DNA from: Paludibacteraceae bacterium
GTDB lineage: Bacteria; Bacteroidota; Bacteroidia; Bacteroidales; Paludibacteraceae
DNA: 64,000 nucleotides
Direction: 5' to 3'
Assembly: GCA_017478725.1 (NCBI GenBank)
Contig: JAFVDD010000006.1
Location: 1,169-65,168, forward strand
Shown here piece after piece: positions 9,112 to 60,174 of this stretch (position 1 is its first letter; the number at the start of each line of letters is the position of its first letter). The translations under genes and the position numbers were made by a program. The notes beneath the pieces were generated by a model. That model ran no database searches, had not been told where the DNA came from, and was given only the letters and a program-made list of their open reading frames with translations.

Positions 9112-9139
9112 ATCGCGTTCGTTGTAACGAAAGCGGCTG

Positions 9140-9621: not shown

Positions 9622-9651
9622 GATAATGTACGATTTACGATGTACGATTTA

Positions 9652-10304: not shown

Positions 10305-10339
10305 AAAAAGTAATAGGAAACTTCACAGCCTCCTATTAC
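10305..10339 (-). terminator. rho-independent terminator downstream of miaB
   Basis: On the minus strand, gtaatagga-ggctgtgaagtt-tcctattac forms a perfect 9-bp stem followed by TTTTT. Confidence 0.65.
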
Positions 10340-10453
10340 CGTTAAACCTAAACCTTAACTATGAAAATTTATTTGTTTTCAATGCAAAAGTACTGCTTTT
10401 ATTTGAAATAGCCAAATTTTTCTGCAACTTTTTGCATTTTTTGTCATTTTTTC

Positions 10454-11803: not shown

Positions 11804-11842
11804 AAAAATCGCATTAAATTTGCATATATCAAAAAAAAGCAG

Positions 11843-11850
11843 TAATTTTG
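11843..11850 (+). promoter_or_regulatory. -7 box TAATTTTG for tRNA-Pro
   Basis: TAnnTTTG match 28 nt upstream of the tRNA 5' end, preceded by an A-run. Confidence 0.55.
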
Positions 11851-11877
11851 CACCCGCTTTCGTGAAAACGGATGCGG

Positions 11878-16223: not shown

Positions 16224-17091
16224 GCCGCTTGTTCGTTTGCTGGTATGGTTGGCGTTGATGGCAGTATGTACATTGACGGCAATGGGCATCTGGCTCCTTG
16301 TTTTTGATGGCAGTCAGACTACCGAAGGGCTCAAATGGCTGCAATTCCTGCAAACTATCGGTACTTTTCTTTTGCCTGCCATTTTAGGCGCATGGCTATG
16401 GTCGCGTGAGCACAAGCCTTTTGCATGGCTGCGGCTTGATTGTGGTTTTTCCTGGCAGGTAGGGCTTTTGGCGGTGGCAGCAATGATTTGCGCAGTGCCC
16501 GGAATCAACCTGCTGGCGGATCTGAACAGCCGTGTTGATCTGCCGGAAAACCTCGATTTCATCGAACAAATCTTGCGTCAACAGGAAGATGCTGCTTCCG
16601 CACTTACCGAGCGTTTCTTGCACGCCGATAATGCAGGAGTGCTATTGGTCAATGTCGGATTGCTTGCCCTGCTTCCGGCGTTGGCAGAGGAAATCTCTTT
16701 CCGCGGTACGCTCCAGCAGATTATCTCCAACAGCGATGCCTCCATAGCCAGGCGCCGAAGGCTTACCGCGGCAGCTATCTGGCTCACGGCATTCATTTTC
16801 TCCGCCATTCATATGCAGTTCTACGGTTTTATACCGCGTATGCTCATGGGAGCCATGTTCGGGTATGTTTTCGTGTGGACAGGCAGCCTTTGGGTGCCGG
16901 TTCTCATGCATGCAACCAACAACGGTCTGGCAGTCATTGCTTACTACCTGTTGGGAGGCGAGGCGGATGACAAAACATGGGCGGACACCATCGGTACAGG
17001 TGCGATGTGGTGGCTGGGCATAATCAGTATTATTGTTACTGTTCTTTTGTTATATACTCTTTATCAACACACTCAAAAACAACAATCATGA
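16216..17091 (+). CDS. CPBP family intramembrane glutamic endopeptidase (CAAX protease-like)
   Basis: The track ORF begins at a TTG at 16210. The first ATG is at 16216 and overlaps the cobB stop. The product is polytopic with the EEISFRG and FSAIH ... HATNN motifs. Confidence 0.8.
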   Translation: MDKPLVRLLVWLALMAVCTLTAMGIWLLVFDGSQTTEGLKWLQFLQTIGTFLLPAILGAWLWSREHKPFAWLRLDCGFSWQVGLLAVAAMICAVPGINLLADLNSRVDLPENLDFIEQILRQQEDAASALTERFLHADNAGVLLVNVGLLALLPALAEEISFRGTLQQIISNSDASIARRRRLTAAAIWLTAFIFSAIHMQFYGFIPRMLMGAMFGYVFVWTGSLWVPVLMHATNNGLAVIAYYLLGGEADDKTWADTIGTGAMWWLGIISIIVTVLLLYTLYQHTQKQQS

Positions 17092-32948: not shown

Positions 32949-34532
32949 TCAGTTCCCTTTCGGCACCATAGTGACCAGAGGAATCACCATTTCCTCCAGC
33001 GATATACCGCCGTGCTGGAAAGTGTTGCGGTAGTATTGCGCATAGTAATTGAACTGGTTGGGGTAGGCGAAGAAATCGCTGCCGGTGCAGAACATATAAC
33101 TGCTGCTCACGTTCGGGCAGGGCAGTCCTACGCGTTTCGGCTGCTCGACAGTCATCACGCTTTTGCTGTTGCAGTTGAGCGCTTTGCCTACCTTGTAGCG
33201 GATATTGGTGTTGGTGTTTTTGTCGGCGATGATTTGTACGGCATTCTTCACGCGGGTGGTGCCGTGGTCGGTGGTCAGCACCAGTGTGTAGCCCGACTCG
33301 GCGGCGCGTTTCAGCAGGTTGTAGGTGGGCGAGTGTCTGAACCAGCTCAGTGTCAGACTGCGGTAGGCCGCTTCATCGTTAGCCAGCTCGCGCATCATCT
33401 TGCTCTCCGTCCGCGAGTGGGAAAGCATGTCGATGAAATTGAGCACGACGATATTGAGCGGAGTCTTGGTGCCTTTGAGTTGCGCAATGACGCGTTCGCA
33501 GAAATCGCTTTCGTTGACTTTCCAATAGGTGAAGGTCTCGCGCCGGCGGTAGCGGTCCAGAAGTGTTTGTACGAGTTCTTTTTCGTATTGGTTCTTGCTC
33601 TCCTCATCGCCTTCCTCCACCCAGTATTGCGGATACATCTCCTGTATCTGCAGCGGCAGCAGACCCGAGAAAATAGCGTTACGGGCATATTGTGTGGCGG
33701 TAGGCAGGATGGACATATACTGTTCTTCCTGACGGATGGTATAAAACTCGCTCAGCAGCGGCTGGATGGTTTTCCACTGGTCGTAACGGAAATTGTCAAT
33801 CACGCACAGCAGCACTTTCTCCCCTTTGTCGAGAAGAGGGAATACCGAGTGCTTCATCACGTTGTGCGACAGGATGATGTCGCCGGAATTATCCCCTTTC
33901 GGCTTTGGGTTTTCCACCAAGGAGACATAGTTTTTCTGCACCCATTTGCCGAAGGCGGCATTGGCCTGTGCGCGCTGGTCTTCCAGCATGGACCGCATGG
34001 GTGAGTTCTCCAACTCGATATCCCAGTGGCTGAGTGTCCGCTCTACGGCTTTCCATTCGTCAAACGTGGCGGCGGTGTCTATCATATACGATATATCGCT
34101 CCATTCCTGGCGGTAGTTGTCGCGTGCGTGCTCGCTCACAATGGCCTGCTGATGGATATGTTTTTTCAGGCACAGCAGTATCTGGTTGGGATTGACGGGC
34201 TTGATCAGGTAATCGGCTATTTTCTCGCCGATAGCCTCCTCCATGATATGCTCTTCCTCGCTCTTGGTGATCATCACAACCGGCACTTCCGGCCGCAGTC
34301 GCTTGATCTCCTGCAGTGTCTCCAGACCCGTGAGACCGGGCATGTTCTCGTCCAGAAAAACGATGTCTATCGCATCGCTCTCTCCGTGTGGCTCCCCTGC
34401 TCCGGTTCGGAAACGGTCCAGAGCATCGCGGCCGTTGGTGGCGGTCACCACTTCATAACCTTTGTTGTTCAGATAAATGATGTATGGTTGCAACAAATCT
34501 ATTTCGTCATCAACCCAAAGTATTTGGCTCAT
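32949..34532 (-). CDS. porX: response regulator with a PglZ/alkaline-phosphatase-like domain (PorX family)
   Basis: 527 aa with a receiver domain (ILWVDDE ... FLDENMPGLTG ... KP) fused to a PglZ-type domain (LNFIDMLSH, TTDHGT). The family name is from memory. Confidence 0.7.
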   Translation of the reverse strand: MSQILWVDDEIDLLQPYIIYLNNKGYEVVTATNGRDALDRFRTGAGEPHGESDAIDIVFLDENMPGLTGLETLQEIKRLRPEVPVVMITKSEEEHIMEEAIGEKIADYLIKPVNPNQILLCLKKHIHQQAIVSEHARDNYRQEWSDISYMIDTAATFDEWKAVERTLSHWDIELENSPMRSMLEDQRAQANAAFGKWVQKNYVSLVENPKPKGDNSGDIILSHNVMKHSVFPLLDKGEKVLLCVIDNFRYDQWKTIQPLLSEFYTIRQEEQYMSILPTATQYARNAIFSGLLPLQIQEMYPQYWVEEGDEESKNQYEKELVQTLLDRYRRRETFTYWKVNESDFCERVIAQLKGTKTPLNIVVLNFIDMLSHSRTESKMMRELANDEAAYRSLTLSWFRHSPTYNLLKRAAESGYTLVLTTDHGTTRVKNAVQIIADKNTNTNIRYKVGKALNCNSKSVMTVEQPKRVGLPCPNVSSSYMFCTGSDFFAYPNQFNYYAQYYRNTFQHGGISLEEMVIPLVTMVPKGN

Positions 34533-42841: not shown

Positions 42842-45800
42842 ATGAAAAACAATTTACTTGATTGGAACGAAGAGCCCTTAAATTTACAGGGGGGGGTATT
42901 CGCAAAGAAAAACACAATGCGAGGTGAAACAAGCATGGGAGTTTCCGCAGTCTGCGCAACCTCTGCGCAACCTCTGCTGAAATACGCGGCATGCCTGTTG
43001 GCTGTGCTATGCCTCGGAGTAGGACAGGTTTGGGGACAGACGCTGGTGGAAACAGACAATATGGAGACTTCTTCTGGAACAGGTACGTCAATGACTGTAA
43101 GTGGCTTTAATCGCAATAGCAGTTGTGACCAGATTTCTCAATCTACAGAGGCAAGAACTGGTACTTACTCAATGAAGACAGAGAAAAATGGAAACGGTGA
43201 GGTCAATGTAAAAACCTCGAACGCTTCTATATCTGTAGCAAAAAGTGAGTATTTATATTGTATAGGCTGGGCGAAAATGGAAAGTAGCGATGTACCCACC
43301 ACTCCTAATGCCAATATTTATGCCCAAGCAAATAGTTATATAGGGGGGAATGGAAAAGGAGACTCAGTCCGTTTAAATAATAGTACATGGCGTCGTTTTA
43401 CATCAAGCAAGAAAGCAAGTAATGCAGTATCGAATGCATCTGTTTTGCTATTGCGTAAACACGGAAGCAAATTGGCAATTCTTTTTGACGATGTTGTAAT
43501 CTATACATCCTCCAATGCTTCTGTTGATATAACTGCTCCTACAGCCGCTTCATCTGCAAGTGCAACGACAAGTAGTATAGATTGGACTTGTGGTTCGGAT
43601 GATAATACAGGTATTCAAAATACATTGATTTGGAGACGCACAAGTAGTTCTGCAGATGATCTTACATTAAATGACCAGGGTGTATATGCTGCAAGTGCTA
43701 CCGACCAAAGCGGTCACTGGACTTGCGTGAGTGCTACGGTAGGAGCAGCAGCAACGAGTTATGCAGGCACATTCTCTTCTGGCGACCGCTATGCCATTGT
43801 TCACAGAGACTTGGCTTACAACTATTCATCGCCAACTTATGTGTCTATCCCTGCCGCTGCTCCTTCAAATACGTATTACTATCGCGGGACGGATAACTCT
43901 TGGGGGGCAACGGCGATGACACCAAGCGAGGGAGGAACATATGAGTATATTGCCTCAACAGCTACAACCAACCAGTTTAAAATAGCACTTTCTGAGTCGG
44001 GATGGGATTACAATCATAATTACAATTGGTCCGGCTTCTTTATGACAGACCAGAATATTAATTTGGGCGACTATAATAGTGACGACTGTTATATTTGGGA
44101 TGCACCATCGAGTTACTATATCATAGTATTCAAACCAAGCACAGCGGTTAATAGTTCGTCTAATCCGCATATCTGCGTATCGAGAACCTTACCGGACGAC
44201 AGCCCTTCCGGTTTGGCAGAAACCAAGACGGTTTATCTGGATCCAGACGTATGGGAAGCAGGTGGTGCGAAATATGCTGTATGCTATGTAGAGCATAATG
44301 GTGAATGGTCCGGTTTTATGACTGCCAGTCCGTGCTTTGACGGCGTGTACCAAACCACTATTCCGGTATGGGTTAGTAATGTGGAGATTGTTCGTTTCAA
44401 CTCAACAGCCACAGAAAGTGAAATCAGTTATGATGGCGGCAAATGTTGGAACTATTCCGGTCACCTCAGTTCGATGCCTTCGGGTGCCGCACGATTTACC
44501 GTTGCTCAAACCGGCGGAACATGGAATGACTTGAATACCTCTAACTGGTCAACGCCCTCCATTCCGACCTACACAATCAATTATGCGAAAGGAACAGTGC
44601 CTTCCGGCGGTGGTTCCATCAGTGGCAGCAAGAGCGATGAGAGCAAGACTTGCGGCGTGGATTTCACTTTGCCTAATAGTACCGTTTTCACCATTACCGG
44701 TTACACACAAACCGGTTGGGCAACATCATCCGGCGGAAGCAAGGCATATGAGCTTGGCGGCAGTTATACAGGAAATGCCAACCAAACGTTCTATCCGTTT
44801 TGGACGGCCAACAATTATACCTTGACATGGATAACGGACGGCGATGCGTTGACCGGCAGTTATACAACAGGCACGGTAGCTTTCGGTACTGCAATCACCG
44901 CACCAAACACCCCGACCAAGACAGGATATAATTTTGCGGGTTGGGATGTAACACCGGCTTCGACCATGCCTGCGGATAATACAACCTATACGGCTACTTG
45001 GACTGCCAAGACCACATCGCTCACGCTCAACCCGAACACCGATAATCACGGAACTGGTAGCAACGTAGCCGTTACAGCCACCTACGCGGCTGTACTGCCG
45101 TCCTTCACCAAAGCCACACCGGCTGAAGGCTATGTGTTGGAGGGTTATTACACCACCGCTTCGGGCGAAGGCACAAAGATTATCAATGCCGACGGAACAC
45201 TCGTTGCCAGTACTGACTATACCTCTGACGATAGCAAGTGGAACAGCGAAATAGCTTCACTCACCTTGCATGCACGATATGATGAAATTGCGTATTGTAC
45301 AACCCTTAATCCTGCTACTTCCGGTTCTTCTCCTACGGCTAAATACGATGAGATAAACATGCAAACCGGCAGCACAGGAGGATCGATTGTTACTGCCGGA
45401 GCAAAGAGCTCTTATAGCGAATCATTTTCTTACACGACGAACGGTCTTAAGTTTAATAAAGGTGGAGCCGACTCAGTCCGTGTTATTCTGGAGAACAATA
45501 TGCGGGCAGGAACCGTGCTCACGTTTGTCATAAACAATGAAACTGGTAGCAAAAGCCAAGGTTTGTACTTAAAGAACTTGAGCAAGACTACAAAAAAGGA
45601 TATGATTCGTCCCGGAACCGGAACGGGAGATACCACCTATGTCTATACTGTAGTGGCAGAGGACGGCTTAGCCGGAACTAACCAATTCATTCTAAGCCGA
45701 GCCTCCTCTTCTGCAGCTCTCAAATCGCTTAAGGTGCATAACTGCGGTAGTGCAGCAACAACCTACAATGTGACGCACACACTGAGTCACGTAACAAAGA

Positions 45801-48800
45801 ATAGTGGTGCTACTTCTGCGCTTGTAGGTGCCAATTACACAGCGGTTTTTACCGATGACATGGGCTTCGATTTGCCTTCAACTATCACAGTAGAGGTGAA
45901 TGGAGAGGAGAAGACGGTTAATACTCACTACACATGGAATCAAGAAACAGGAACAGTAGTCATCTATGGCGCATATGTGACGGATGATATCGAAATCACC
46001 ATCACCGGAGTGGATGAGGGCTATACCATCACCAACGGCAGTCCTTCCGGTGGTAGCATTGCTATCACCTTTAATGATGAAGCGGTCACTAAAGCACAGG
46101 AAAATGACCAAGTGAATATTGTGGCCACACCAAGTACCGGCTATAGTTTCAGCAGCTGGAGTATCTACAAAACAGGCGATGCCGGTACAACTGTGTCGCC
46201 TAACGCATCAACGGCTTCTACCTATTTCACCATGCCTGCCTATGGCGTGACGGTGGATGCAACGTTTACCGCCATCAACTACGCCATTACACACGCCGCT
46301 GCCGACAACGGCACCTATACTGTCCAAGTGGCGAGCGGCGACCCTGTATCCGAAGGAACAGGCGTGAACGCCAATTATGGTCAGACAATCACGCTGGCTG
46401 CTACACCGGGAAGCGGCTATGTGCTTGATCACTGGACAGTGACAGAGACCGTAAGCGGCGATCCCATATCGGTCACCAACGCCACGCTGGAGACTGCTAC
46501 GTTCACCATGCCGGCTGTGGCTGTAACGATAGTGCCGACATTCAAAGCCACGCCTAACATTTATTACTACAAGGATGCGACACGCTATGTCTCTTCCACG
46601 TATAAGAATCCGGAAGGAGGCACCGCGGGCAGTGGCGACAACAAAAACCTGACTACTCCGTGGAAGATGTGCGATGCCTGCGTCGCAGGTGTGGACAGCG
46701 TGGTTGTGACGAATGGTCAGTATGACGGCAAGGGCAATTACATGGACGCCTATATCAAACTGGGTATAGGTGGCAATGCTACAAGCAAGAACATCATCTT
46801 TGGAATCAAGAACGGTTATACGGCTTCTTCAATCAACCTCAAGATAGGCGGCTATAGTGCTAACCCGACAGTGACACTGAAAAAACTGACAAGCGGAAGC
46901 TTGGGCGATGCAATCGCTTATACCGGCACGATAGGTGGAGTGGCTACGAAAGAGAATGACTTCAGCGCTATTACATGGAGCAATCAAGCAGCCGGTGTGT
47001 ATGTACTCAATGTAAGTTCCAAGAACTCCTATATCTCAGAAATAGATATCCAAACCACGCCGCTCAACTACACCGTCACCCTCAACGCCAACGATGGTAC
47101 AATCAACGCCGGCAATGTGACGAGTTACACGTACGGCACGGGCGCAACCCTGCCGACCGATGTGACGAAGGATAATTACACCTTCGGCGGCTGGTACGAG
47201 GCAAGCGATTTCAGCGGAAGCGCGGTCACTACTATCTCTACCACCGACTACGGCAATAAGACCTATTACGCCAAATGGTATGCCAGTGACTACTCCTATA
47301 CTCCTACTCAGTCGAGCGGCACGCTGGCAGAGGGAGAAGTGGCTGTCACTTCTACGAACGGCGTACTGAAATATACGCCGTCAGCAGGAGCCGGCTCTCC
47401 GTCTATGTACTACGAAAGTTTCGGTAGTCCTTCACGCAACGGTTTGCGCTTCAACGGAAGCGGGCAATGTATGGCTACTATCTATCTGCAAAAGAACATG
47501 CAGGCGGGAACCATCATTACCGCTACTATTGCATCTGTAAGTAGTGATAAGGAATGCGGATTAGAACTCTGCACTACCGGTAGTGAGACAGTGACCACAT
47601 GGTCATGGACGCCGGTTGAGAATGCAGAGGAACATACGTTCACATATACCGTGACGGCAGAGGATGATTTGGCAGGAACTAATGTGTTCCGGTTGAAACG
47701 TCACAATGCAGATATACGTATCATTTCCCTCATCGTTGCCAACTGCAGCAACACGGAGGCTACTTGTACAGTGACCTACCACAGCAATGGCGCTACGTCG
47801 GGCAGCGCACCGGATGCTGCCAACTACCTCACGGGCACCGATGTGATAGTGAAGGACAACACCGGTCTGCTGCAAGCGGACGGTAATCTGGTCTTTGCCG
47901 GTTGGGCGACATCGCTTGACCGCGCCAATGCCGGTACGGTGGACTACAATCCTGCTGCCGGCGCAACGATAGAGACCATAACGGCAGATGTCAACCTCTA
48001 TCCGGTTTGGAAGACAGGATACTACTTTATTTCGCTGGCAGGTTATAGCGCAAACGGCACACTGAATACAACGGATTTTACCACCCCCAAATCCATCATA
48101 ACGGACAAAAGACGTACCGTGAACGAAGTAACGTTTAGCACCAGTGTGTTTAGAATGAGTAAAACGCCTAATGACGGTAATGTAGAGCAGACATTTGCAG
48201 GAACAAACCTGGCGGATGGTAAGAGTTGCTTCATATACGATACCAAGACTACCCAAACAGATATTTCTATCTATGTGTATAACGACGATGAGTCCAATGC
48301 GATACCTATCTGCTACCGCGTATTGAAAGAAGGAGATATTCAGGATGTAGTCCAGGTGGACATCCCAGCTAATAGCGGCATGGTGGTGAATATCCCTACT
48401 ATCACGCATACCAAAGGAACGCGTGTGCTCTTTGGTGCCGGTACAAGGAATGGTTCCGACTACGGAAAAATCAATTTCACTCAAGTCAGAGCCATCGAAA
48501 CAGGTATCGCTGTGCCACAAGCGGGTGAGGCTGGTTTCGAACTGGCCGTACCCGGACGTTTTACGGCTTCAAAAGATGCAGCAAGTTCGATTGACGGCTT
48601 GACGTGTATTCCTAATGATAATGTACATATCATTGACGGTAAGAAAAATACGATTCCGTTGACCGGCGCACAGGATGTAGAGGCAACGCAATACATCAGT
48701 TTCACTACATCCGGTTCTGTACAATTGCAAGTTACGCCAAAGAATGCGCAAGACCGCGTCACATTCTATGTGAAGAAAGACAGCCGTACGTTTACTTCGT

Positions 48801-51800
48801 CAGACACCCCGTATGGTAAGCGAAATACCATTACTTCCGTCAATCTTCCTGAAGCAGGCACATGGTATATCCTATCCGGTGAAAGTGCTTCGACGAAAGA
48901 TATAGTCATTACCAAGATAGCCTTTGTAGCCGCGCCGGTGATTACGTACGACGCCAACGGCGGTACGGGCGAAATGAGCACAAGTACCTGTAATGCTGCG
49001 GCAAATAGTTTCACACCGCCGACCGGCTATTCGTTCGCCGGTTGGAACACGGCGGCCGACGGAAGCGGCACGGCTTATGCCGTCGGCGACGAGACACTCA
49101 CCGACCTCACCCTCTATGCCCAATGGAGTGTGAACTCCTACACTATCACCCTCGACAAGAACGGCGGCAGTACAGACGGAACGGCAACGGTGAGTTACGG
49201 TGGCGCACGTGCTACGGTGAGCGCAGCACCGACCTATAGCGGCTATGAAGTGACAGGCTATTTCACGGAAGCTGCGGGAGGCATAAAAGTGCTGAATGCA
49301 GACGGTTCGTCCGCCGATAATAACGTAACAGGTTATTTCACAGACAGCGTATGGACCAAGACGGCGGATTGCACATTATTTGCGCATTGGGGTGTGACAC
49401 CTACCGCTGAGTACCTCTATCGTGCAAAGAGCAATTTATCGGGATGGGAAAGTACGACATATCCTTTATCCTCTGCAACAGCGGAAACGTGGCAGTTTGA
49501 GTGTAAATGGCCAAGCCGGATGTTCGCCATCGAACAGTTTGAGGTGCCCGACTTCGCGACTGCGAAGACGTTGACGCTGACCCTGACGCTGACGACCAAA
49601 GGTGCGAACGGAAAAATGGGTGTATGGTGTTATCCGCATGAGATACCTACCAGCTATTCGGACGACTATGCTTCGTTCTTCACACAGGTAGAAGAAGTGA
49701 CGGGCGTAGCCGTCAACAGCACGAGCGGAGCGTTCGCGCATCAGTTGGCGGTGAGCGACTGTAGTAATGCCACAGGTCGCACATGGACACTCACGATGAA
49801 TGCCGGTTCTATCACACCGGTGGGCTACAAACCCGACGGAACAACGGCTATCGTGCAGTTGCTGGTATCGTCCTACACCCCTGCTATGGAAACACAGATG
49901 AAGTTCTATACCAACAACTCCGCCAACACGATGGCTACGCGTCCGAAACTGTCGGTAGCGTATTACAGCGGTGATGTTGCGTATCCGAAGGCAGAGATCA
50001 ACTATCGCACGAATACAGGAGGTACCAAATGGAGTTTTGTGAAAGAGAACGATGACTATGACAACTTCGAAACCAACGCCGACGCGCAGATATTCACGGT
50101 AGAGCAGTTTGTGATAGAAAACTATAGTCCTGACCGCAAATATACGCTGACGTTAAGCAAGCACGCCGACCCTGTGCAGACGATTGCTGTATGGGACTTC
50201 CCGTACGTGTTGCCTATAAGCACAGAGGTGGGATGCAGTAGTCTGGTAGCGGATATAGAGAGCGTGACGGGAGTAGATTTGTCCGCAGGCTCCTATACCT
50301 ATTCGGGTCAGATAGCTGCCGTCGCCTGTACGGACAACAAGTGGACTTTCACCGTTCCGGGCTATAAGCTGACACCTGTTTCCAAAGACGGGAATAACAC
50401 TGCGGTGGTGAACCTGTTGTTGACCAGTAGCAGCAAGGCAACGTATAAGACCAACCATACGGACAATGCCGACGGCGTGAAACCAACGCTCGCTTATACA
50501 AGCACCTATCCTGTGCGTATTGACGGCGGAGATTACTACTACGACCTCAAGACTGCTTATGATGCGGCAGCGGCGAACGATGTCATCTATATCTGTCAAG
50601 ATTTCGAGCAAACGGGTGAAGGTTCTGGGACTCTGATTACGATAGAGAAAGCGCTGACGATAGCCGGTGAGAATGGTGTGAAAACCATTACGCGCGGATA
50701 TAGGAAAGACCAACAGCTCATTCAGGTGAAGAGCAACTGTACATTCCGCGACCTGATCTTCGAAGGCAAAGAGGCTGATAGATCAGGTGGCCGTGACGTG
50801 ATAGAGGTATATAATAAAAGTACCAACACCGATGTGACGTTTGACAACGTGACCTTCAGCAAGTTCAAGAATGATGCTACCAACCGCGGTATTGTTTCTG
50901 TGAACAACCATGCAAAAGTGACATTCAACGATGTGATGTTTGTAGGCTGCGTCGTGCCCGATACTTGCGGTGATATAGGTGTGCTCGGAAGTTCACGCAA
51001 TATAGTAGTAACAGGAACGCTCAATGCACCGGAAGGCGTATATCTGGAGAAGGACAAACGGGTAGAAAATAGCAGCGCAACCTATAGTGTAATAACGCCG
51101 ATACATGTGTCGTATGACTACAGGCATGGCTATTCTGCCATACTGACGGTAGGAGATGAAGCGACATACAACCGGTTCTCGGTAGCCAACACAGGATGGT
51201 ATAAGATGTTCGTTCATCCCGGAGGCAAGAACGAACTGGCTGTCAAGCATGGTACCTATATCACGTTCGACAAGAACGGCGGTGACGCTGATGGTAGTGC
51301 TGAAGTTGCAGCAGATAGCACGGACACCTACGTGACACCTATCACTCATGTTACGCGCGTCGGTTACAACCTCACGGGCTATTACACGGCTCCCTCTGCC
51401 GGCACCAAGGTGCTGAACGCGGACGGTACGTATGCCGCCACCAATGTGACAGGGTATATCACCGACGGCAAGTGGACGCATGCCAATGTGACCCTGACCC
51501 TCTATGCCCAATGGACACCAGGCGAATTGACCTTCACCGGCGAAACGGACGCTCACTGGAGCACCGCCTCCAACTGGTCGCCGGCTATGCTGCCGACGAT
51601 AGAGCACGACGTAGTGATAGAGGCACCGGTGACGGTGGATATACCCGATGCCCGGGCTGCTTCTATTGCGCTCACCGGCTCTGCCACCATGACCGTCCAA
51701 GCCAACCAAGCTCTGGTGGTAGCAGGTACCATCACCAAGAGCGGTGCAGCTCCTACGGCGACGGATCTTCTGCTGGAGTCATCCGCGGCGGGCAACGCCA

Positions 51801-53035
51801 CGCTGATATTTGACAACTCCAACTCGGCTGCCGCCACCGTGGAGATGTACAGCAAGGCCTCGGCGGCTACTACACCCTGGTCGTGGCAGTATATAGGAGT
51901 GCCGTTCACCAGCGCCAATGCTGAACAGACCTACTATGGCGGATATATGTACGGCTGGAAAACCGATGGCTCGGGTTGGGAGACAGTTACCAGATCCACT
52001 ACCCTCAATGCCTTCACCGGTTATAGTATCTCTTATCCTGCCACCAGCCATACCTATTCAATGACCGGCACGCTGGCTCAGACGACGAGCAAGGACATCG
52101 CCGTCCCGGCAGGCAAGGATATGGTGGTAGGCAACAGCTGGACGGCGCCGATACAGATCAAGCAACTGCGTGACGATGACTTCACCAACCTGCTCAAGAA
52201 CATCTATCTCTACAACACCGGCATGGACTCCACGGGTACCGGCATTGAGGCAAGCAGCCGCTATGAGGCAGGCACCTACCTGACCATACCTATCTACTCA
52301 TCGCCCTACACAGGCGATAGTGTGATCAGTTCGTTGCAGGGCTTCTTCGTGACCAACACTTACGGCAGTGACGGTTCGCTGCACCTCAGCTATGACGACC
52401 ATGTGCGTCCGGCTGCCGGCAATAGCGTAGTAGCCGGACCGATGCATGCGCCCAGACGTATGCCTGCGGCGGAAGAGGCAAGTCCGGCAATCGTGAAACT
52501 CATCGCCGGCGGCAGCCGCTACGACGACCGTCTGGTGCTGCTGGAGCGTGGTGATTTCACCACCGGCTATGATGACGGTTGGGACGGCGAGAAATGGCCC
52601 GGAGGAGAAAACTCGCCTGCCCTCTACGCCACCCGTGCGGACGGTACGGCCGATGCGGTAAGCGCTATTCCCGAACTGGAAGGAACACCTCTCACCTTCC
52701 GCGCAGGCGAGGATGATGTATATACACTGCGTATGGAGTACAAGGCACGGGATGCGGAACCGCTCTACCTCTATGACACCTATATGAACGCGTACACACG
52801 CGTAGAGGACGGGGCAACCTATTCGTTCCTGACCTACGACAAGGATACGCATACACGCTTTATCCTCACGCGCTACAGGTCACCGCAAGTGGCTACCGGA
52901 GACGAAGCCGCCTCCGATGCCTCACGGAAGGGAAGAGCTACTAAGCTGATCATCGATCAGAAGCTTTATATCCTGCGCAACGGTGTCTTGTATGACGCTA
53001 CAGGCAAATGTGTGAAACAAGGGTTGAACCGGTAA
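42842..53035 (+). CDS. giant (3397-aa) secreted multidomain surface protein with CBM-like modules, Listeria-Bacteroides (InlB B-type) repeats, DNRLRE-like modules, a right-handed beta-helix and a conserved C-terminal tail
   Basis: Single uninterrupted 10.2-kb ORF. The signal-peptide h-region LLKYAACLLAVLCLGVGQVWG suggests the true start may be the ATG at 42917 or 42935. Repeated GY.F.GW....G......LYA.W modules occur at about 44570-45285, 47060-47280, 47760-48010, 48935-49395 and 51250-51525. A beta-helix-like segment lies at about 50510-51250. Domain names rest on motif recognition only. Confidence 0.85.
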   Translation: MKNNLLDWNEEPLNLQGGVFAKKNTMRGETSMGVSAVCATSAQPLLKYAACLLAVLCLGVGQVWGQTLVETDNMETSSGTGTSMTVSGFNRNSSCDQISQSTEARTGTYSMKTEKNGNGEVNVKTSNASISVAKSEYLYCIGWAKMESSDVPTTPNANIYAQANSYIGGNGKGDSVRLNNSTWRRFTSSKKASNAVSNASVLLLRKHGSKLAILFDDVVIYTSSNASVDITAPTAASSASATTSSIDWTCGSDDNTGIQNTLIWRRTSSSADDLTLNDQGVYAASATDQSGHWTCVSATVGAAATSYAGTFSSGDRYAIVHRDLAYNYSSPTYVSIPAAAPSNTYYYRGTDNSWGATAMTPSEGGTYEYIASTATTNQFKIALSESGWDYNHNYNWSGFFMTDQNINLGDYNSDDCYIWDAPSSYYIIVFKPSTAVNSSSNPHICVSRTLPDDSPSGLAETKTVYLDPDVWEAGGAKYAVCYVEHNGEWSGFMTASPCFDGVYQTTIPVWVSNVEIVRFNSTATESEISYDGGKCWNYSGHLSSMPSGAARFTVAQTGGTWNDLNTSNWSTPSIPTYTINYAKGTVPSGGGSISGSKSDESKTCGVDFTLPNSTVFTITGYTQTGWATSSGGSKAYELGGSYTGNANQTFYPFWTANNYTLTWITDGDALTGSYTTGTVAFGTAITAPNTPTKTGYNFAGWDVTPASTMPADNTTYTATWTAKTTSLTLNPNTDNHGTGSNVAVTATYAAVLPSFTKATPAEGYVLEGYYTTASGEGTKIINADGTLVASTDYTSDDSKWNSEIASLTLHARYDEIAYCTTLNPATSGSSPTAKYDEINMQTGSTGGSIVTAGAKSSYSESFSYTTNGLKFNKGGADSVRVILENNMRAGTVLTFVINNETGSKSQGLYLKNLSKTTKKDMIRPGTGTGDTTYVYTVVAEDGLAGTNQFILSRASSSAALKSLKVHNCGSAATTYNVTHTLSHVTKNSGATSALVGANYTAVFTDDMGFDLPSTITVEVNGEEKTVNTHYTWNQETGTVVIYGAYVTDDIEITITGVDEGYTITNGSPSGGSIAITFNDEAVTKAQENDQVNIVATPSTGYSFSSWSIYKTGDAGTTVSPNASTASTYFTMPAYGVTVDATFTAINYAITHAAADNGTYTVQVASGDPVSEGTGVNANYGQTITLAATPGSGYVLDHWTVTETVSGDPISVTNATLETATFTMPAVAVTIVPTFKATPNIYYYKDATRYVSSTYKNPEGGTAGSGDNKNLTTPWKMCDACVAGVDSVVVTNGQYDGKGNYMDAYIKLGIGGNATSKNIIFGIKNGYTASSINLKIGGYSANPTVTLKKLTSGSLGDAIAYTGTIGGVATKENDFSAITWSNQAAGVYVLNVSSKNSYISEIDIQTTPLNYTVTLNANDGTINAGNVTSYTYGTGATLPTDVTKDNYTFGGWYEASDFSGSAVTTISTTDYGNKTYYAKWYASDYSYTPTQSSGTLAEGEVAVTSTNGVLKYTPSAGAGSPSMYYESFGSPSRNGLRFNGSGQCMATIYLQKNMQAGTIITATIASVSSDKECGLELCTTGSETVTTWSWTPVENAEEHTFTYTVTAEDDLAGTNVFRLKRHNADIRIISLIVANCSNTEATCTVTYHSNGATSGSAPDAANYLTGTDVIVKDNTGLLQADGNLVFAGWATSLDRANAGTVDYNPAAGATIETITADVNLYPVWKTGYYFISLAGYSANGTLNTTDFTTPKSIITDKRRTVNEVTFSTSVFRMSKTPNDGNVEQTFAGTNLADGKSCFIYDTKTTQTDISIYVYNDDESNAIPICYRVLKEGDIQDVVQVDIPANSGMVVNIPTITHTKGTRVLFGAGTRNGSDYGKINFTQVRAIETGIAVPQAGEAGFELAVPGRFTASKDAASSIDGLTCIPNDNVHIIDGKKNTIPLTGAQDVEATQYISFTTSGSVQLQVTPKNAQDRVTFYVKKDSRTFTSSDTPYGKRNTITSVNLPEAGTWYILSGESASTKDIVITKIAFVAAPVITYDANGGTGEMSTSTCNAAANSFTPPTGYSFAGWNTAADGSGTAYAVGDETLTDLTLYAQWSVNSYTITLDKNGGSTDGTATVSYGGARATVSAAPTYSGYEVTGYFTEAAGGIKVLNADGSSADNNVTGYFTDSVWTKTADCTLFAHWGVTPTAEYLYRAKSNLSGWESTTYPLSSATAETWQFECKWPSRMFAIEQFEVPDFATAKTLTLTLTLTTKGANGKMGVWCYPHEIPTSYSDDYASFFTQVEEVTGVAVNSTSGAFAHQLAVSDCSNATGRTWTLTMNAGSITPVGYKPDGTTAIVQLLVSSYTPAMETQMKFYTNNSANTMATRPKLSVAYYSGDVAYPKAEINYRTNTGGTKWSFVKENDDYDNFETNADAQIFTVEQFVIENYSPDRKYTLTLSKHADPVQTIAVWDFPYVLPISTEVGCSSLVADIESVTGVDLSAGSYTYSGQIAAVACTDNKWTFTVPGYKLTPVSKDGNNTAVVNLLLTSSSKATYKTNHTDNADGVKPTLAYTSTYPVRIDGGDYYYDLKTAYDAAAANDVIYICQDFEQTGEGSGTLITIEKALTIAGENGVKTITRGYRKDQQLIQVKSNCTFRDLIFEGKEADRSGGRDVIEVYNKSTNTDVTFDNVTFSKFKNDATNRGIVSVNNHAKVTFNDVMFVGCVVPDTCGDIGVLGSSRNIVVTGTLNAPEGVYLEKDKRVENSSATYSVITPIHVSYDYRHGYSAILTVGDEATYNRFSVANTGWYKMFVHPGGKNELAVKHGTYITFDKNGGDADGSAEVAADSTDTYVTPITHVTRVGYNLTGYYTAPSAGTKVLNADGTYAATNVTGYITDGKWTHANVTLTLYAQWTPGELTFTGETDAHWSTASNWSPAMLPTIEHDVVIEAPVTVDIPDARAASIALTGSATMTVQANQALVVAGTITKSGAAPTATDLLLESSAAGNATLIFDNSNSAAATVEMYSKASAATTPWSWQYIGVPFTSANAEQTYYGGYMYGWKTDGSGWETVTRSTTLNAFTGYSISYPATSHTYSMTGTLAQTTSKDIAVPAGKDMVVGNSWTAPIQIKQLRDDDFTNLLKNIYLYNTGMDSTGTGIEASSRYEAGTYLTIPIYSSPYTGDSVISSLQGFFVTNTYGSDGSLHLSYDDHVRPAAGNSVVAGPMHAPRRMPAAEEASPAIVKLIAGGSRYDDRLVLLERGDFTTGYDDGWDGEKWPGGENSPALYATRADGTADAVSAIPELEGTPLTFRAGEDDVYTLRMEYKARDAEPLYLYDTYMNAYTRVEDGATYSFLTYDKDTHTRFILTRYRSPQVATGDEAASDASRKGRATKLIIDQKLYILRNGVLYDATGKCVKQGLNR

Positions 53036-53051: not shown

Positions 53052-53654
53052 ATGAAGACTACTATCAAAAACATATTACTGGTCATCAGCGCAACTCTTT
53101 GTCTCAATGCAGAGTCTGCCACCAAACCGCACTACGATTTCTATTCCACCAGTATGCTCTCGCCCAACAAGCAGTCCAACTACGCTCCCTCGCATATCAA
53201 CCAGAGCGGGAAAGTGAAGGTGCAGAGCAATACTGCCGAACTCAGGAGTTTCAACCGGCGTATGGCCGGAGGCACTCCGGGCGAGGTGTTCAGTGCCGAT
53301 CTGTTCCACCGTGCCGCTGCAGCACAAACTATCGGAGGAGGCGGCGAATCGTTCACTCCGGCATCGTCCAGCAATACGCACCATAGCGGCAGCCGCGGAG
53401 TCAACTATACCAATCAACTACCATCCGTATCGCTCTCGGCGCTCAAGATCTCCCGCCAGAACACGGAGAACATCACCGTGGCGGCAGCTACGGCCGATGA
53501 GGCGGGACGTCCCTCGCATAACCGTTTTCCGGGTACGCCGGGTTCGGAGGGCGAACAGCTGCCTCTGGGCGATGCAGTGCTGCCGCTCATGCTGATGGCG
53601 ATACTATATACGGGGGTGCGTCTGATGCGCAGAAAACCAGCAAAACTACTGTGA
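53052..53654 (+). CDS. 200-aa secreted low-complexity protein with a C-terminal motif-TM-basic tail (sorting-signal-like)
   Basis: It starts 16 nt after the giant gene. It has an N-terminal signal peptide, a Ser/Gly/Ala-rich body, and the ending LPLGDAVLPLMLMAILYTGVRLMRRKPAKLL. Confidence 0.65.
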   Translation: MKTTIKNILLVISATLCLNAESATKPHYDFYSTSMLSPNKQSNYAPSHINQSGKVKVQSNTAELRSFNRRMAGGTPGEVFSADLFHRAAAAQTIGGGGESFTPASSSNTHHSGSRGVNYTNQLPSVSLSALKISRQNTENITVAAATADEAGRPSHNRFPGTPGSEGEQLPLGDAVLPLMLMAILYTGVRLMRRKPAKLL

Positions 53655-55251: not shown

Positions 55252-57215
55252 AACCTGAACGTTGCTCCCACCAGGAAATTGATACCCTGGGAGGTGTAGC
55301 CGTAATAGATGTCGTTCTTGTAGTGAATGAAATTGTTCACTTGGGCAAAGAGCGTCAGGTTGGGCTTGGGCTCCGGGCGGAGCGGTAACTCCCCGCCCTC
55401 TGAGTGCTGATGGCTTACAGCTGAACGCTTACCTCCTACCCACATGTTATACTGCATGCCGAGATCCAACTCTACGGTAGGTTTGAGCAAGTGCTCGCCA
55501 TCCGTCGCCAGCGCCAGACGGCTGCCGGCAAAATGGTTGTCGGAATAGAGCGACCAGTGCTTGTCTATCTTCCCGTCCACGCGCAGGCCTAACTGCCAGT
55601 TGGCATGGTCATATACAGTGCGGCTGTTGTTGGCAAGAACATCGGTGAGTTCCGTGCAAGTGGAGGCGTACTGATAGCCGTTGTTCTCATAGCGCAGGGC
55701 ACGCCAGAAATAGTAGTCCCCGTACAGGTTGACGCGTACGATATCACGATAGTGGTAGTTGAACTGGGCTCCCACCTTTCCGCGGCTGTAGTCGCAATAG
55801 GTATAACTGAAATCGCCGGCATGCACAAAAGCATTGAACGCCGCTGGCATATAGCGTGCGCTGTCGGTCACGGCAATGAGGGTGGTGGTGTTCAGATAGA
55901 GAGCGTAGCCTCCGTGGAGCTCGATGAGCAGGTCGCGGTAGGGCCGTATATGGAAGCCCAGTTCGGCATCCACCGGCGTATGCGGCGCTGCGTGGTGGGA
56001 GATGATACCTGCATGGATAACACGGTAGCGGTTCTGCTCCATGAACGCCTGCAACGTACCCATGGCGTGGGAGCCGGTGGCGTCGGCATAGAGCGTGAGC
56101 CATTTCTTGGCTATCTGCGCCTCCAGATGCACATGAGGCGACGGGGCAAAACTGAGGTTGTTGACGCCGGAGAGGCTGTTCTGGCCGCGACCTATGTTCA
56201 TATCCAGATTGACGCCCACGTGGAGCTGCACGCGACGGCTGTTGTAGGCATAATAGGGTTCCAGACGGATATTATGGCGGCTGTTGTACATCGTGGAGGG
56301 AATAGTTGCCGCCAGATTGCCGTTCAGGCTGAGGAAATTGTTCTGCACATAGAGTACGGCTCCTACGTGGTGGAAATCACGGCTCCAGTCGAACGACGCA
56401 TGTGTACGTATCTGGTGCTCGGCTACGGCATTGGGTTTGGCAAAGAGCATATAGCCTGTCTGCACGCGGTACTGCACCTCCTGTTTGGCGTTGGAGCGGA
56501 CACCTATATAGGCCTCTGCGGTCCAGAGGGAGGTCTGGTCGGCAGGGGTGATAGTGCGCGGCTCGGGATAGAGCGTTTTGGTGCGATCCCATGCGCCGGC
56601 ACTGCCTTGTGCGTAGTCGTAGAAACGGCCGTATTTGTTGTAGAACACATTGCCGCCGTTGATGCCGAAATAGACGCTGCAAGCGGAGAACGGGTGGGAG
56701 AAATCAAAACCGAGCTTGGTTTTGCTGAGTGCTCTGAGTCCCCATTGGGCACGATGATGGGCATACACGTCCAGTATGGAGCGTTTGCCGTCGTCCAGAC
56801 GGTAGCCGAAATCAAAGAGCGTGTTCGTGTGTCCCAGTCCGCCGCGTACGTAGCCGTTGTAGGACTGGCCTTCGCCGAATCGTGTGGGCTGAGAGAGCAG
56901 TGGCTGCAAGCCGGTTTCTGTTTTCACCTCTACGGCATAGTTGGAATAGCTGACCTCAACCGGCTCAATAGTTGTTTCCACGATAGCGGGTTTGGTAGCC
57001 ACCTTGCCGGCTGCCCGGATGACAGGCTGGAAATCACGCTCTACCGTCACGGAGCGGTTGAGTGCACTGTCGCTCTGCGCCGAAGCAGGAGTAAGGAATA
57101 AGGACAATGGAATAAGGACAAAAATGTATCGGCTGATAGTATTCGCTCTTTTGTCTTTCAGCGAAGCGGTCTTTATTCTTTCAGCGAAGCGGTCTGTATT
57201 ACTCGTCATCATCAT
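55248..57215 (-). CDS. large outer-membrane beta-barrel protein (putative porin-like; no TonB plug recognised)
   Basis: 655 aa with a signal peptide ending PASAQS, alternating aromatic/Gly-rich strands throughout, and the C-terminal OMP signature GATFRF. It overlaps the upstream TPR gene by 17 nt. Confidence 0.65.
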   Translation of the reverse strand: MMMTSNTDRFAERIKTASLKDKRANTISRYIFVLIPLSLFLTPASAQSDSALNRSVTVERDFQPVIRAAGKVATKPAIVETTIEPVEVSYSNYAVEVKTETGLQPLLSQPTRFGEGQSYNGYVRGGLGHTNTLFDFGYRLDDGKRSILDVYAHHRAQWGLRALSKTKLGFDFSHPFSACSVYFGINGGNVFYNKYGRFYDYAQGSAGAWDRTKTLYPEPRTITPADQTSLWTAEAYIGVRSNAKQEVQYRVQTGYMLFAKPNAVAEHQIRTHASFDWSRDFHHVGAVLYVQNNFLSLNGNLAATIPSTMYNSRHNIRLEPYYAYNSRRVQLHVGVNLDMNIGRGQNSLSGVNNLSFAPSPHVHLEAQIAKKWLTLYADATGSHAMGTLQAFMEQNRYRVIHAGIISHHAAPHTPVDAELGFHIRPYRDLLIELHGGYALYLNTTTLIAVTDSARYMPAAFNAFVHAGDFSYTYCDYSRGKVGAQFNYHYRDIVRVNLYGDYYFWRALRYENNGYQYASTCTELTDVLANNSRTVYDHANWQLGLRVDGKIDKHWSLYSDNHFAGSRLALATDGEHLLKPTVELDLGMQYNMWVGGKRSAVSHQHSEGGELPLRPEPKPNLTLFAQVNNFIHYKNDIYYGYTSQGINFLVGATFRF

Positions 57216-60174
57216 TTACCTCCTTTTCTGCGGGTTGTTCTATCTTGTCCAGTTTGGCGAGACGGTCGCTGATGAGTGCGGGTATATCATCGCCGGTGAT
57301 GGTGTAGTTCTGCTGTAGTGCGAGCAGGTACTGGCGCGCCTGGAATGTCTCGCCGCGGCGGGTGTATATATCGCTCAGCAGGATGAGTGCGCGTGCGAGC
57401 CAGTATTGCTGGCTGGTGCTCATGCCGGTGAACGACATCACCTCTGCTTCCGCCTCGTCAAGCTGACCTGACTCAAACCGGCTTTGTGCCAGCAGGTATT
57501 TGGCTTCGGCGCCCTGCGCTGTGCGTACCTCGCTGGACAGCTGTTTGAGGTCCGGCTGGGCTTTCTCCCATTCGCCTTGAGCCGTATAGGCTTTGGCGCG
57601 GCAGTAGAGCGCTTCGTTGCGCACTGCCTCGTCCGGCTGGTCGTTCAGCAGTTGGCCGGCTATGTCGATAGTAGCCGTATGGCGTCCCAGCAGTGATGAG
57701 CAGCGCAGGATACCTACGCGGGCCACGATACTGTTCTCGCGGGTGGACGCCAGTGCGTTCATGCGATAGAAAGCCTCCAGCGCCGCTGCGTAGTCTCCGC
57801 GGTCGTAGTAGATCTCTGCCATACGTGTGGCTGCTTCCTCCTGATAGGGATTGGCTGCGAGATCAGCCAGCTGGCTGTATTGCTCCAATGCTTCCGCATT
57901 TCTGCCCAGGCGGTAATACGAGTCGGCAAGATAGTAGAGAGCCGTGGTGCAGTATCTGCCTCCGGCACAGTAACGCCGTATATATTCGCTCAGCGGCTCC
58001 GTGGCTTTCTGATATGCCGCCTGCATATACTGCATCTCTGCGGCGGCAAAGAGCAGGCTGTCCTCGCGTGTAGTGACGGTCATATTCAGTTTGGCGAGAT
58101 TCTTGGTATAGGCGAGGTACTCGTCTATACGGTTTTGCTCCACATACAGGGCCTGCAGGGTCTCCAGCGCCGTGTAGGCCTCCTCTGTAGCCGGATATTT
58201 CTCTATGGTCTGGCGGTAGGCGGCTATAGCCTGGTCGGTCTGGTTGAGGTTGCGGTAGAGCATTGCGCGCTCCAGCGAGGCCTTGCGGGCAAGGGCGGAG
58301 TGGGGATAGGTGTTGAGCAGTTGCTCATAGGTGGTGATAGCTCCGCGCTCGTCGTTGAGCTGAAGTTGCGCACGCGCTGTCTCATACATACCGTCGTCGG
58401 CATAGTCGGATTTGGGATAACGGGTGGTCAGGGTGCGCAGCGCTGCTATCTTGTCGTTGTATTGGCGCAGCAGACCCAGTGCATAGCCGCGCTGGAAGAG
58501 CGCATAGTCGGCTCCTACGGCCTGGAGGTTGCTTACCTGGGTGTAATAGCTGATAGCCTGTTTGAAATCACGGGCGTTGAAATAGCAATCGCCTATACGG
58601 TTGAGCGCATCGGCATAAGTGGCATCGCCCGTATCGGCTCCGTCTATATAGGTGGTGAAAGCTGTGCGTGCCTGATCGTAATGGTTTTGCGAGAAAGCGC
58701 AGTAGCCTTCCAGGTAGCGCGCTATCCGGTAGTTGGCCGATTGCTTGGCGTCATGGCGGGCGAAGAAGGACTGCAGGTCGCTCTCGCATGCGCTGTAGTC
58801 ACGCAGACGGTATTCCGCTTCGGCACGTATATAGAGTGCCTCGGTGGTGTAGCGGTCGCTCTCGTTACGGTGGCTGACCACTTCGCCTGCGCGGTCAATA
58901 GCCTGCTGCATCTTGCCTTGCAGAAATCCGTCGGCTGCCAGTTGGTAGCGCAGATACTGCTTGGTCTCCAGCATCTTGGGAGTGGGGTCGGAGATACTGT
59001 CCAGCGTGGCAATGGCTGCAGCGTAGTTCTTGCTTTGCATCAGCGCCGAACTCAGCAACTGGTAGATATTGCTCTCGTATTTGGAATCAGGAAAAGCATG
59101 CAGGAAATCATTGAACGCCTTGACCGACTCGCCCAAAGCCGACGAAGAACGATAGGAGCAGAGGGTGTAGTTGTAGGCAGCCTCCTCGGTGATAGCAGGC
59201 GTGAGGCGGTAGCTGGCGGCAGCCTGATACCACAGCTGTGCCTGCTCGGGTTGGTTCATATGGATATAGGCATGACCGATGGTCAGGCAGGCCGACTCGC
59301 TCAGCGTGTCCGGCTGCTGTTTGATCAGTTTCAAATGGCGGATGGCGTCCGGATAGCGGTTCAGTCTGTACTCGGCATGACCGAGCAGGTACAGGTCCTC
59401 GCGCCGCAACTCCTCCTTGCGCTCCTGAGCGTCCTGTTCGTATTGCTGCAACTGCTCAGCCGCCTCTTCGTAGCGCCCGTCGCGATAGCGTATCTCGCCC
59501 AGCATACGGTGCAGCTCGCCGGATAAATCATTGTCCGGCTGGGTGCGCAGCAGCATGACAATACGCTCCTCCGCCTCATCATAGCGTCCCTGGATATAGT
59601 CGGTCTGCGCGATGAAATAGGGCACAGTCTTGGCGTATTCGGGCATCTGCTCCAGACGCTTGAGTGAAGGCAAAGCCTTGTCGTACTCGCCCGTTTTGTA
59701 CATACAATAGGCGTAGTAATAGTCGGCGCGGGTGGAATAGCGGTTGTCGGATTTGGACAGATGACCGAAATAGATAGCCGCCCGCCCGTAGTCCTGCAGC
59801 ATCAGATAGGAGTAGCCGCGATAGAAGGAATAGTCGTGCTGGTGAGCCCGTCCGAGTGCGCTGATGTCAATAGGCTCCAGTACCTTGAGGGCTTGTTTGT
59901 AATGACCGCGCTCTACCTGCAGTATTCCCTGCATCAGATTGACTTCGTCGGCAAACGTGGTGTAGGGAAACTCCTGCATATAGGCCTTCAAATCGCGCTG
60001 GAGCACCGAGGTGTTGCCGCTACGGCTGTCAAAACGCTCTGCCAGTGCGTTGTAGCGCACTTCCATCTCCGTCGTCTGCGCGAAAGCTCCGCTTAATGGC
60101 AAAAGATAAAAGACAATCGACAGGACGATATGACGACATGTCGATATGTCGAAAAACTTAGTTAGTAATGTCAT
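57199..60174 (-). CDS. 991-aa secreted multi-TPR protein (YbgF/CpoB-like repeats)
   Basis: A signal peptide is followed by TPR-type A..Y.....Y..A periodicity along the whole length. Its ATG overlaps the potD stop (ATGA at 60171-60174). Confidence 0.7.
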   Translation of the reverse strand: MTLLTKFFDISTCRHIVLSIVFYLLPLSGAFAQTTEMEVRYNALAERFDSRSGNTSVLQRDLKAYMQEFPYTTFADEVNLMQGILQVERGHYKQALKVLEPIDISALGRAHQHDYSFYRGYSYLMLQDYGRAAIYFGHLSKSDNRYSTRADYYYAYCMYKTGEYDKALPSLKRLEQMPEYAKTVPYFIAQTDYIQGRYDEAEERIVMLLRTQPDNDLSGELHRMLGEIRYRDGRYEEAAEQLQQYEQDAQERKEELRREDLYLLGHAEYRLNRYPDAIRHLKLIKQQPDTLSESACLTIGHAYIHMNQPEQAQLWYQAAASYRLTPAITEEAAYNYTLCSYRSSSALGESVKAFNDFLHAFPDSKYESNIYQLLSSALMQSKNYAAAIATLDSISDPTPKMLETKQYLRYQLAADGFLQGKMQQAIDRAGEVVSHRNESDRYTTEALYIRAEAEYRLRDYSACESDLQSFFARHDAKQSANYRIARYLEGYCAFSQNHYDQARTAFTTYIDGADTGDATYADALNRIGDCYFNARDFKQAISYYTQVSNLQAVGADYALFQRGYALGLLRQYNDKIAALRTLTTRYPKSDYADDGMYETARAQLQLNDERGAITTYEQLLNTYPHSALARKASLERAMLYRNLNQTDQAIAAYRQTIEKYPATEEAYTALETLQALYVEQNRIDEYLAYTKNLAKLNMTVTTREDSLLFAAAEMQYMQAAYQKATEPLSEYIRRYCAGGRYCTTALYYLADSYYRLGRNAEALEQYSQLADLAANPYQEEAATRMAEIYYDRGDYAAALEAFYRMNALASTRENSIVARVGILRCSSLLGRHTATIDIAGQLLNDQPDEAVRNEALYCRAKAYTAQGEWEKAQPDLKQLSSEVRTAQGAEAKYLLAQSRFESGQLDEAEAEVMSFTGMSTSQQYWLARALILLSDIYTRRGETFQARQYLLALQQNYTITGDDIPALISDRLAKLDKIEQPAEKEVNDDDE
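60118..60157. repeat. period-8 array, CGACATGN family (5 units), inside the 5' end of the TPR gene
   Basis: The units read cgacagga cgatatga cgacatgt cgatatgt cgaaaaac. They are translated as FFDISTCRHIVLS. Confidence 0.9.

Follow-up and report, generated by a model that had tools for sequence, protein, structure and literature searches.

The stretch of DNA analysed here, hereafter the window, is a 64-kb segment of contig JAFVDD010000006.1 from a Paludibacteraceae bacterium whose source is a gut metagenome. Two of its open reading frames (ORFs), one encoding a giant surface protein and the other an esterase, end in a shared C-terminal tail, which is discussed below as a candidate T9SS (type IX secretion system) sorting signal. 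The features on which the discussion rests are as follows; all lie on the forward strand, and E values and bit scores refer to a leave-out profile described in the next section.

42842-53035, +: giant surface protein, an ORF of 3397 aa (amino acids) and the first carrier of the tail
42917-43039, +: the giant protein's probable signal peptide region (…LLKYAACLLAVLCLGVGQVWG/Q), placed by eye from the sequence
51527-52882, +: C-terminal body module of the giant protein, about 450 aa, without a Pfam family
52883-52942, +: the giant protein's linker, PQVATGDEAASDASRKGRAT, in which the cleavage-site-like motif is degenerate (A-T-G-D-E)
52943-53017, +: tail core of the giant protein, KLIIDQKLYILRNGVLYDATGKCVK (24.5 bits, E 9.4e-7)
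53018-53035, +: five extra residues, QGLNR, beyond the conserved core, and the stop codon
17088-18968, +: CE12-like SGNH/GDSL esterase of 626 aa, the second carrier of the tail
17088-17156, +: putative esterase signal peptide, MKHNQFVLTLIAATVISLPAISA, placed by eye; a helix is modelled at residues 2-16
18837-18887, +: esterase linker, EPQQEAIEQTGAQTRSA, with a cleavage-site-like motif (E-A-I-E)
18888-18965, +: esterase tail core, KVFENGILYIVRPDGTRYTIDGNQVR (28.7 bits, E 4.7e-8)

Anatomy and occurrence of the tail module

The two proteins show no relationship outside the tail. The giant protein, which may start at M1 or at M26, contains Listeria-Bacteroides/InlB B repeats (Pfam Flg_new, 1.4e-39; also Flg_new_2). 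Its body module (…HWSTASNWSP…YDDRLVLLERGDFTTGYDDGWDGEKW…), modelled by AlphaFold2 (AF2) with moderate confidence only, recurs in about 20 other proteins, where it stands directly ahead of the tail or of a canonical T9SS C-terminal domain. The esterase resembles rhamnogalacturonan/pectin acetylesterases (Pfam Lipase_GDSL_2, with a partial match to the pectin acetylesterase PaeY). The start of its gene at 17088 is also called in three contigs of the same species (L001-L003), and its nearest named relatives come from metagenome-assembled genomes (MAGs) of Paludibacteraceae and Paraprevotella.

The C-terminal ends themselves, RATKLIIDQKLYILRNGVLYDATGKCVKQGLNR at 52934-53035 and RSAKVFENGILYIVRPDGTRYTIDGNQVR at 18879-18968, each closed by a stop codon, read as quoted in the original prediction, which had proposed them as a shared sorting tag. 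In both, a disordered linker leads into a core of 25 residues with the consensus K-h-h-x-[DN]-G-x-L-[YFL]-I-x-[RK]-x-G-x-x-Y-[NDT]-x-x-G-x-x-[VIL]-[KR], in which K1, G6, I10, Y17 and G21 are invariant. A six-frame regular-expression scan of the window found this motif at two places only, both of them ORF ends. We also built a hidden Markov model (HMM) of 41 positions from 146 carriers belonging to neither window protein family (consensus EATAIENVQSSSVKAQKVLRNGQLFIIRDGKTYNAQGAEVK) and ran it against the window's 1,135 six-frame ORFs; the esterase and giant ends came out on top, and the next best ORF scored 3.0 bits. With the two tails so far above that background, their likeness goes beyond chance. 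The terminal motif is also stable within the esterase family, being shared by 119 of the 120 best homologues (61-72% identity) in the form K-[IV]-[IL]-R-[DN]-G-Q-L-[LFY]-I-x-R-[DN]-G-K-x-Y-N-A-x-G-x-x-[VIL]-[KR].

The AF2 models, made with homologue alignments for both proteins, agree with the earlier statement that the tails follow a linker: in both proteins a segment with a predicted local distance difference test (pLDDT) score below 50 gives way to three to four short strands. In the esterase model (mean pLDDT 87) the disordered residues are 587-596, and residues 600-626 form strands at 600-604, 607-611 and 617-619 with pLDDT values of 80-86. In the model of the last 697 aa of the giant protein (mean pLDDT 62), residues 648-661 fall below 50 and the core folds into four short strands (666-671, 674-679, 682-685 and 690-693).

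A second conserved element lies upstream of the core. When 228 carriers were aligned at the lysine that opens the core, it showed as T(-14), G/A(-13), I/V(-12), E/D(-11), D/N(-10), V/I(-9) and Q(-8). Of 217 upstream windows (positions -20 to -7 relative to the core), 104 (48%) contained a relaxed form of the motif; of 485 control windows drawn from these proteins, 23 (5%) did, a roughly tenfold difference. The motif [T/A]-[G/A]-[I/V]-[E/D] sits some 12-14 residues before the core and within the AF2-disordered linker; in the esterase, the alignment to the leave-out HMM starts at position 2 and so takes in the E-A-I-E motif. The conserved unit therefore measures about 38-41 residues, the 25-aa core being preceded by a variable linker (about 10 aa) and this in turn by the cleavage-like motif, so that the tail of about 25 aa originally described corresponds to the core and falls short of the whole module.

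The module is not confined to the window. A profile of the 25 core positions, searched against 1.84 billion cluster representatives (clusters at 50% identity), returned 10,048 matches at E<=1e-3. The 150 best profile matches, in proteins of 24 to 1592 aa, all stop 0-3 residues short of the C-terminus, and a local search of 391 retrieved proteins gave 373 copies at the C-terminus and none that was genuinely internal, the exceptions being four proteins with a 10-residue extension. An N-terminus resembling a signal peptide was found in 56 of the 66 carriers of at least 250 aa; the other ten resemble fragments or miscalled starts. Among these best matches and long carriers, the motif is thus neither internal nor a feature of cytoplasmic proteins.

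Pfam families assigned to 49 full-length carriers were led by LRR_5 (BspA type; 16 carriers) and LRR_8 (13), and also included DUF285, fn3, Big_2 and Flg_new_2. These are typical surface-protein architectures, of the kind listed for T9SS cargo of Prevotella intermedia by Ye et al. 2025 (PMC11969387). The names attached to the carriers at their source are 'hypothetical protein' or that of an enzyme domain, and never refer to the T9SS.

T9SS genes and comparison with known sorting signals

T9SS components had been noted in the window, and two genes score well above the curated cutoffs of their models:

11989-14664, -: PorW/SprE, T9SS periplasmic lipoprotein (NF052312, 641.7 bits against a cutoff of 250)
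32949-34532, -: PorX, T9SS response regulator (NF052313, 740.2 bits against a cutoff of 300)

Since the window encodes PorW/SprE, and PorX besides, the organism can be taken to possess a T9SS. A further candidate for PorW, the 991-aa tetratricopeptide repeat (TPR) protein at 57199-60174 (-), reached only 55.9 bits against the same cutoff of 250 and was rejected; it resembles TPR proteins of the YbgF/BamD type.

At the level of sequence, the tail and the canonical C-terminal domains (CTDs) of T9SS cargo are swapped at the same junction in homologues of both window proteins. Fourteen homologues of the giant's body module end in the tail. Another, P0389, ends in a domain that scores 29.3 bits on TIGR04183 (cutoff 23), and P0378 and P0390 lie just below that cutoff (22.4 and 18.9 bits); P0391 has a short CTD with the motifs B, D and E, ending …VWYDLSGHKLQSKPTAKGIYIMNGKKVIIK. 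BLASTP aligns the giant's module collinearly with P0378 at 43% identity up to …RFILTRYRSPQVATG and …RFLLTRNNGNQTATG, respectively. Beyond this shared ...ATG junction, the giant protein runs into the tail and P0378 into a long CTD. In the esterase family, the homologue P0088 (67% identity) carries a short B-D-E CTD in place of the tail and ends …VRYYSVDGKHLSQPAKGIIIISSLMSNGDTITEKILAK.

Gene neighbourhoods bring the two kinds of signal together. On contig L008, a tail-bearing LRR_5 protein adjoins P0088. On contig L007, a pectate lyase adjoins three consecutive tail carriers (the esterase P0045 and the ORFs 8511-9890 and 9955-11862); its end, …IRIYAISGAC…GTYIAVTTDGALRFNKF, looks by eye like a type-A CTD and scores only 13.8 bits on TIGR04183 against the cutoff of 23. 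As read from these sequences, and with the CTD on L007 called by eye, both signal types are present on single contigs, which parallels the published mixture of short and long CTDs in P. intermedia. The L007 genes belong to a pectin-utilisation cluster (2923-11862), which also holds one GDSL esterase with neither signal.

Compared with the known signal classes, the tail shares several attributes with type A (TIGR04183/PF18962, Por_Secre_tail). It follows the same junction as the CTDs of P0389, P0378 and P0390, and, as with type A, it lies at the extreme C-terminus of proteins with a Sec signal peptide in a genome encoding a T9SS. It differs in build, the type-A CTD being a seven-stranded beta-sandwich of 70-100 aa and the tail core a 25-aa unit of three to four short strands in AF2 models. 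Neither TIGR04183 nor PF18962 matched either window tail (E<=1-10), the 49 full-length carriers or 34 isolated modules; the long CTD of P0389 (29.3 bits) served as the control for TIGR04183 and was detected. TIGR04131 (type B) did not match the tail and no PorP/SprF-like gene follows either tail carrier, and NF033708 (type C, or ChiA-type) gave no match to the tail at E<=10. These results agree with the earlier view that the tail is not an ordinary T9SS CTD, and types B and C, as alternative C-terminal signals outside type A, offer a precedent for several signal classes.

Searches with the whole of Pfam and NCBIfam at permissive thresholds likewise yielded no model matching the tail in the window tails, the 49 carriers or the 34 modules. 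DUF6383 (PF19910), a putative T9SS targeting domain (PMC9722745), was considered as the identity of the tail and rejected: none of the 49 carriers matches it, and its sole match in the esterase is internal (aa 369-403, inside a beta-sandwich domain), sub-threshold (17 bits against 23.7) and probably spurious. The silence of the T9SS models carries little weight either way, because TIGR04183 and PF18962 also miss the short B-D-E CTDs of P0391, of P0088 and of the Prevotella falsenii protein introduced below, that is, of a published signal type; the standard models are thus blind to short CTDs in general. A PDB sequence search gave no chain with the tail, tblastn against plasmids and phages did not find it, and a full-text literature search, with subscription journals outside its coverage, returned no description of the motif.

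The closest published counterpart is the 'short CTD' of P. intermedia, reportedly the subject of work by Veith et al. in 2013. In the account of Ye et al. 2025 (PMC11969387), CTDs of two sizes occur in the T9SS cargo of this species, long ones of 69-82 aa and short ones of 40-55 aa. Either kind is cleaved within a flexible linker at a PT/GI consensus, of which Ile is the most conserved residue, and the C-terminus so created is glycosylated. The upstream motif of our tail matches this PorU site in sequence, spacing and disorder. The tail module also has the make-up by which short CTDs are described there (40-55 aa, with PT/GI in a flexible linker), at 38-41 aa and with a degenerate motif in the giant protein. 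Further likenesses are a C-terminal position after a disordered linker, a total of about 40 aa, a small three-stranded sheet predicted for it, the same cargo classes and co-occurrence with long CTDs in one genome. The tail is slightly shorter and ends in a turn resembling motif B.

As a reference for the short type, we back-translated the glycopeptide of an experimentally cleaved P. intermedia cargo protein (A0A1P8JF82), which led to an orthologue in P. falsenii (L004, 3923-7075, -). Past the cleavage point this protein reads GINGINNNETEVKTVYDLQGRRLPAEAATKKGVYIINGKKVVVK up to its stop codon, a compressed set of the canonical motifs B (VYDLQGRRL), D (GVYII) and E (KKVVVK). The published short CTD thus keeps B, D and E in order (VYDLQGRRL…GVYIINGKKVVVK), whereas the tail has no collinear D and E. 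When the tail was compared by HMM and profile-profile methods with three short and four long CTDs, only its last 9-12 residues (tYNaqGqev) aligned, and they aligned to motif B; no motif D or E was found downstream of the motif-B-like turn in these HMM and hhalign comparisons. For the short CTDs (A7) and the long CTDs (A9) the profile comparison was made separately, each time with the same tail profile (A6), and the pairing with motif B is seen again in the BLASTP extension with P0378. In the test for homology of the tail to canonical CTDs, the motif-B match was insignificant in HMM and hhalign alike; because the matches are statistically weak, we note the resemblance to motif B and claim neither homology nor a circular permutation or truncation. 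Judged on its residues against the P. falsenii orthologue, the tail is distinct from the published P. intermedia short CTD.

Interpretation and alternative explanations

The breadth of the tail, its position, the signal peptides of its carriers and its link to the T9SS all support the idea of a sorting signal, and we consider the tail likely to be a mini-CTD, by which we mean an ultra-short version of the C-terminal signal used in T9SS sorting. The link to the T9SS is the stronger for resting on PorW together with PorX, on the upstream PorU-type motif, on the exchange with CTDs and on the presence of both signals on single contigs.

Recognition, export, cleavage and attachment of the carriers might then proceed as follows. 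Their N-terminal signal peptides would direct them through Sec into the periplasm, where the T9SS translocon and the PorV shuttle would recognise the tail, presented as a 25-residue beta-meander on a disordered tether. The terminal Y-[ND]-x-x-G-x-x-V-[KR] turn of the tail is similar to motif B of the CTDs, a loop which lies deepest in PorV according to published models. The PorU sortase would cut the linker between [T/A] and the following [G/A]-[I/V]-[E/D], about 12-14 residues ahead of the core, and the new C-terminus would be coupled to a surface glycolipid or released. The original prediction had left the choice between a secretion or attachment signal and an anchoring hairpin. T9SS sorting is favoured here, and the tail would on this model be removed, so that its role as the anchor itself becomes doubtful.

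Several observations weigh against a T9SS signal. Firstly, the tail has no collinear B-D-E motifs, and D and E, which form the last two strands, proved indispensable in Porphyromonas gingivalis mutagenesis (cited in PMC11969387). Secondly, the likeness to motif B is weak (hhalign probability <5%, P ~0.009; HMM <2 bits). Thirdly, the giant protein's own linker has T-G-D-E instead of T-G-I-E. Finally, taxonomic labels are attached to few of the tail hits only, namely MAGs of Paludibacteraceae and Paraprevotella.

The main rival, which we regard as unlikely, holds that the tail is a T9SS-independent anchoring or docking hairpin that is retained uncleaved and binds, for example, lipopolysaccharide, peptidoglycan or, by strand complementation, an outer-membrane barrel. 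A very short, beta-hairpin-like element that is without motifs D and E and is matched by no T9SS model would suit such a role, and the exchange with CTDs could equally mean alternative localisation routes. However, a PorU-like cleavage motif lies upstream in the disordered tether and the cargo classes are those of the T9SS. A passenger of up to 3397 aa, moreover, still needs an outer-membrane translocon, for which the T9SS is the route that the window shows.

It is improbable that the tail has no role in sorting and serves as a small module for ligand binding or oligomerisation, comparable to cell-wall- or glucan-binding hairpin repeats. Its pattern of G, hydrophobic strand, turn, aromatic residue and G recalls choline-binding/CW_binding_1 hairpins, a likeness that no tool match supports. 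The tail, however, never occurs in more than one copy and never away from the extreme C-terminus, it stands behind a disordered linker on unrelated proteins, secretion CTDs replace it in homologues, and no Pfam repeat family matches it.

Of lower probability again is the possibility that the tail is simply a divergent type-A CTD or the published short CTD of P. intermedia. The position is the same, a cleavage-like motif is present, and the length (38-41 against 40-55 aa) and the small predicted sheet are similar; the P. falsenii reference nevertheless has a compressed B-D-E arrangement with which the tail profile is not collinear. Chance or shared composition as the source of the likeness between the two tails, to which we give next to no credence, is refuted by the leave-out E values (4.7e-8 and 9.4e-7) and by the 10,048 carrier clusters.

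Returning to the mini-CTD, we hold about as readily as we doubt that it represents a distinct and unmodelled class of T9SS signal, a hairpin of about 25 residues with a motif-B-like end and without D and E strands, present in more than 10,000 clusters from gut and rumen Bacteroidales. If so, recognition by PorV and the translocon would need far less than the CTD fold, and current predictions of T9SS secretomes would miss many cargo proteins in these lineages. The T9SS model would not be overturned unless the missing D and E motifs proved functionally dispensable.

Should the tail act as a T9SS signal at all, its 25-residue core would set a new lower bound for recognition by PorV and the translocon and might offer a compact export tag for engineering. 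In many Bacteroidales of gut and rumen, the surface and secreted proteomes would then be under-called, with adhesin-like LRR proteins, giant repeat proteins and pectin-degrading enzymes among the proteins concerned. Models of the TIGR04183/PF18962 type, now in use for the detection of T9SS cargo, miss the tail completely, as they do experimentally supported short CTDs; annotation pipelines could be extended by a simple HMM like the one of 41 positions built here.

Neighbouring genes and minor observations

The 10-residue extension past the tail occurs in the esterase homologues P0021, P0022, P0024 and P0030 (AGRTAHVERH or similar), and may derive from read-through, a frameshift or an extension that is tolerated. 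A subgroup of esterase homologues (P0003-P0009, P0013, P0025-P0027 and others) is about 810 aa long; in these proteins the SGNH domain, which in P0003 begins near residue 203, is preceded by some 190 additional N-terminal residues.

Upstream of the esterase, a gene for an Rce1-like/CPBP intramembrane protease (16210-17091, +) overlaps the esterase start by 4 nt (nucleotides). A functional link between this gene and the esterase tail was considered and rejected: the adjacency is kept in L001-L003, and since it is absent in L007 and L008, the gene is probably unrelated to the tail.

Downstream of the giant gene, and beginning 17 nt past it, lies an ORF of 200 aa (53052-53654, +) with a signal peptide at its N-terminus and a low-complexity middle, for which no family match was found. 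Its C-terminal end, …QLPLGDAVLPLMLMAILYTGVRLMRRKPAKLL, consists of a short motif, a hydrophobic helix and a basic cluster, and by its sequence looks like a tail anchor or a signal in the style of LPXTG or PEP-CTERM. The ORF, this C-terminal end and the local gene order are kept in L005 and L006 (81% identity), where the giant homologue is followed by the counterpart of the 200-aa ORF, GH88, a 638-aa ORF and the TPR protein.

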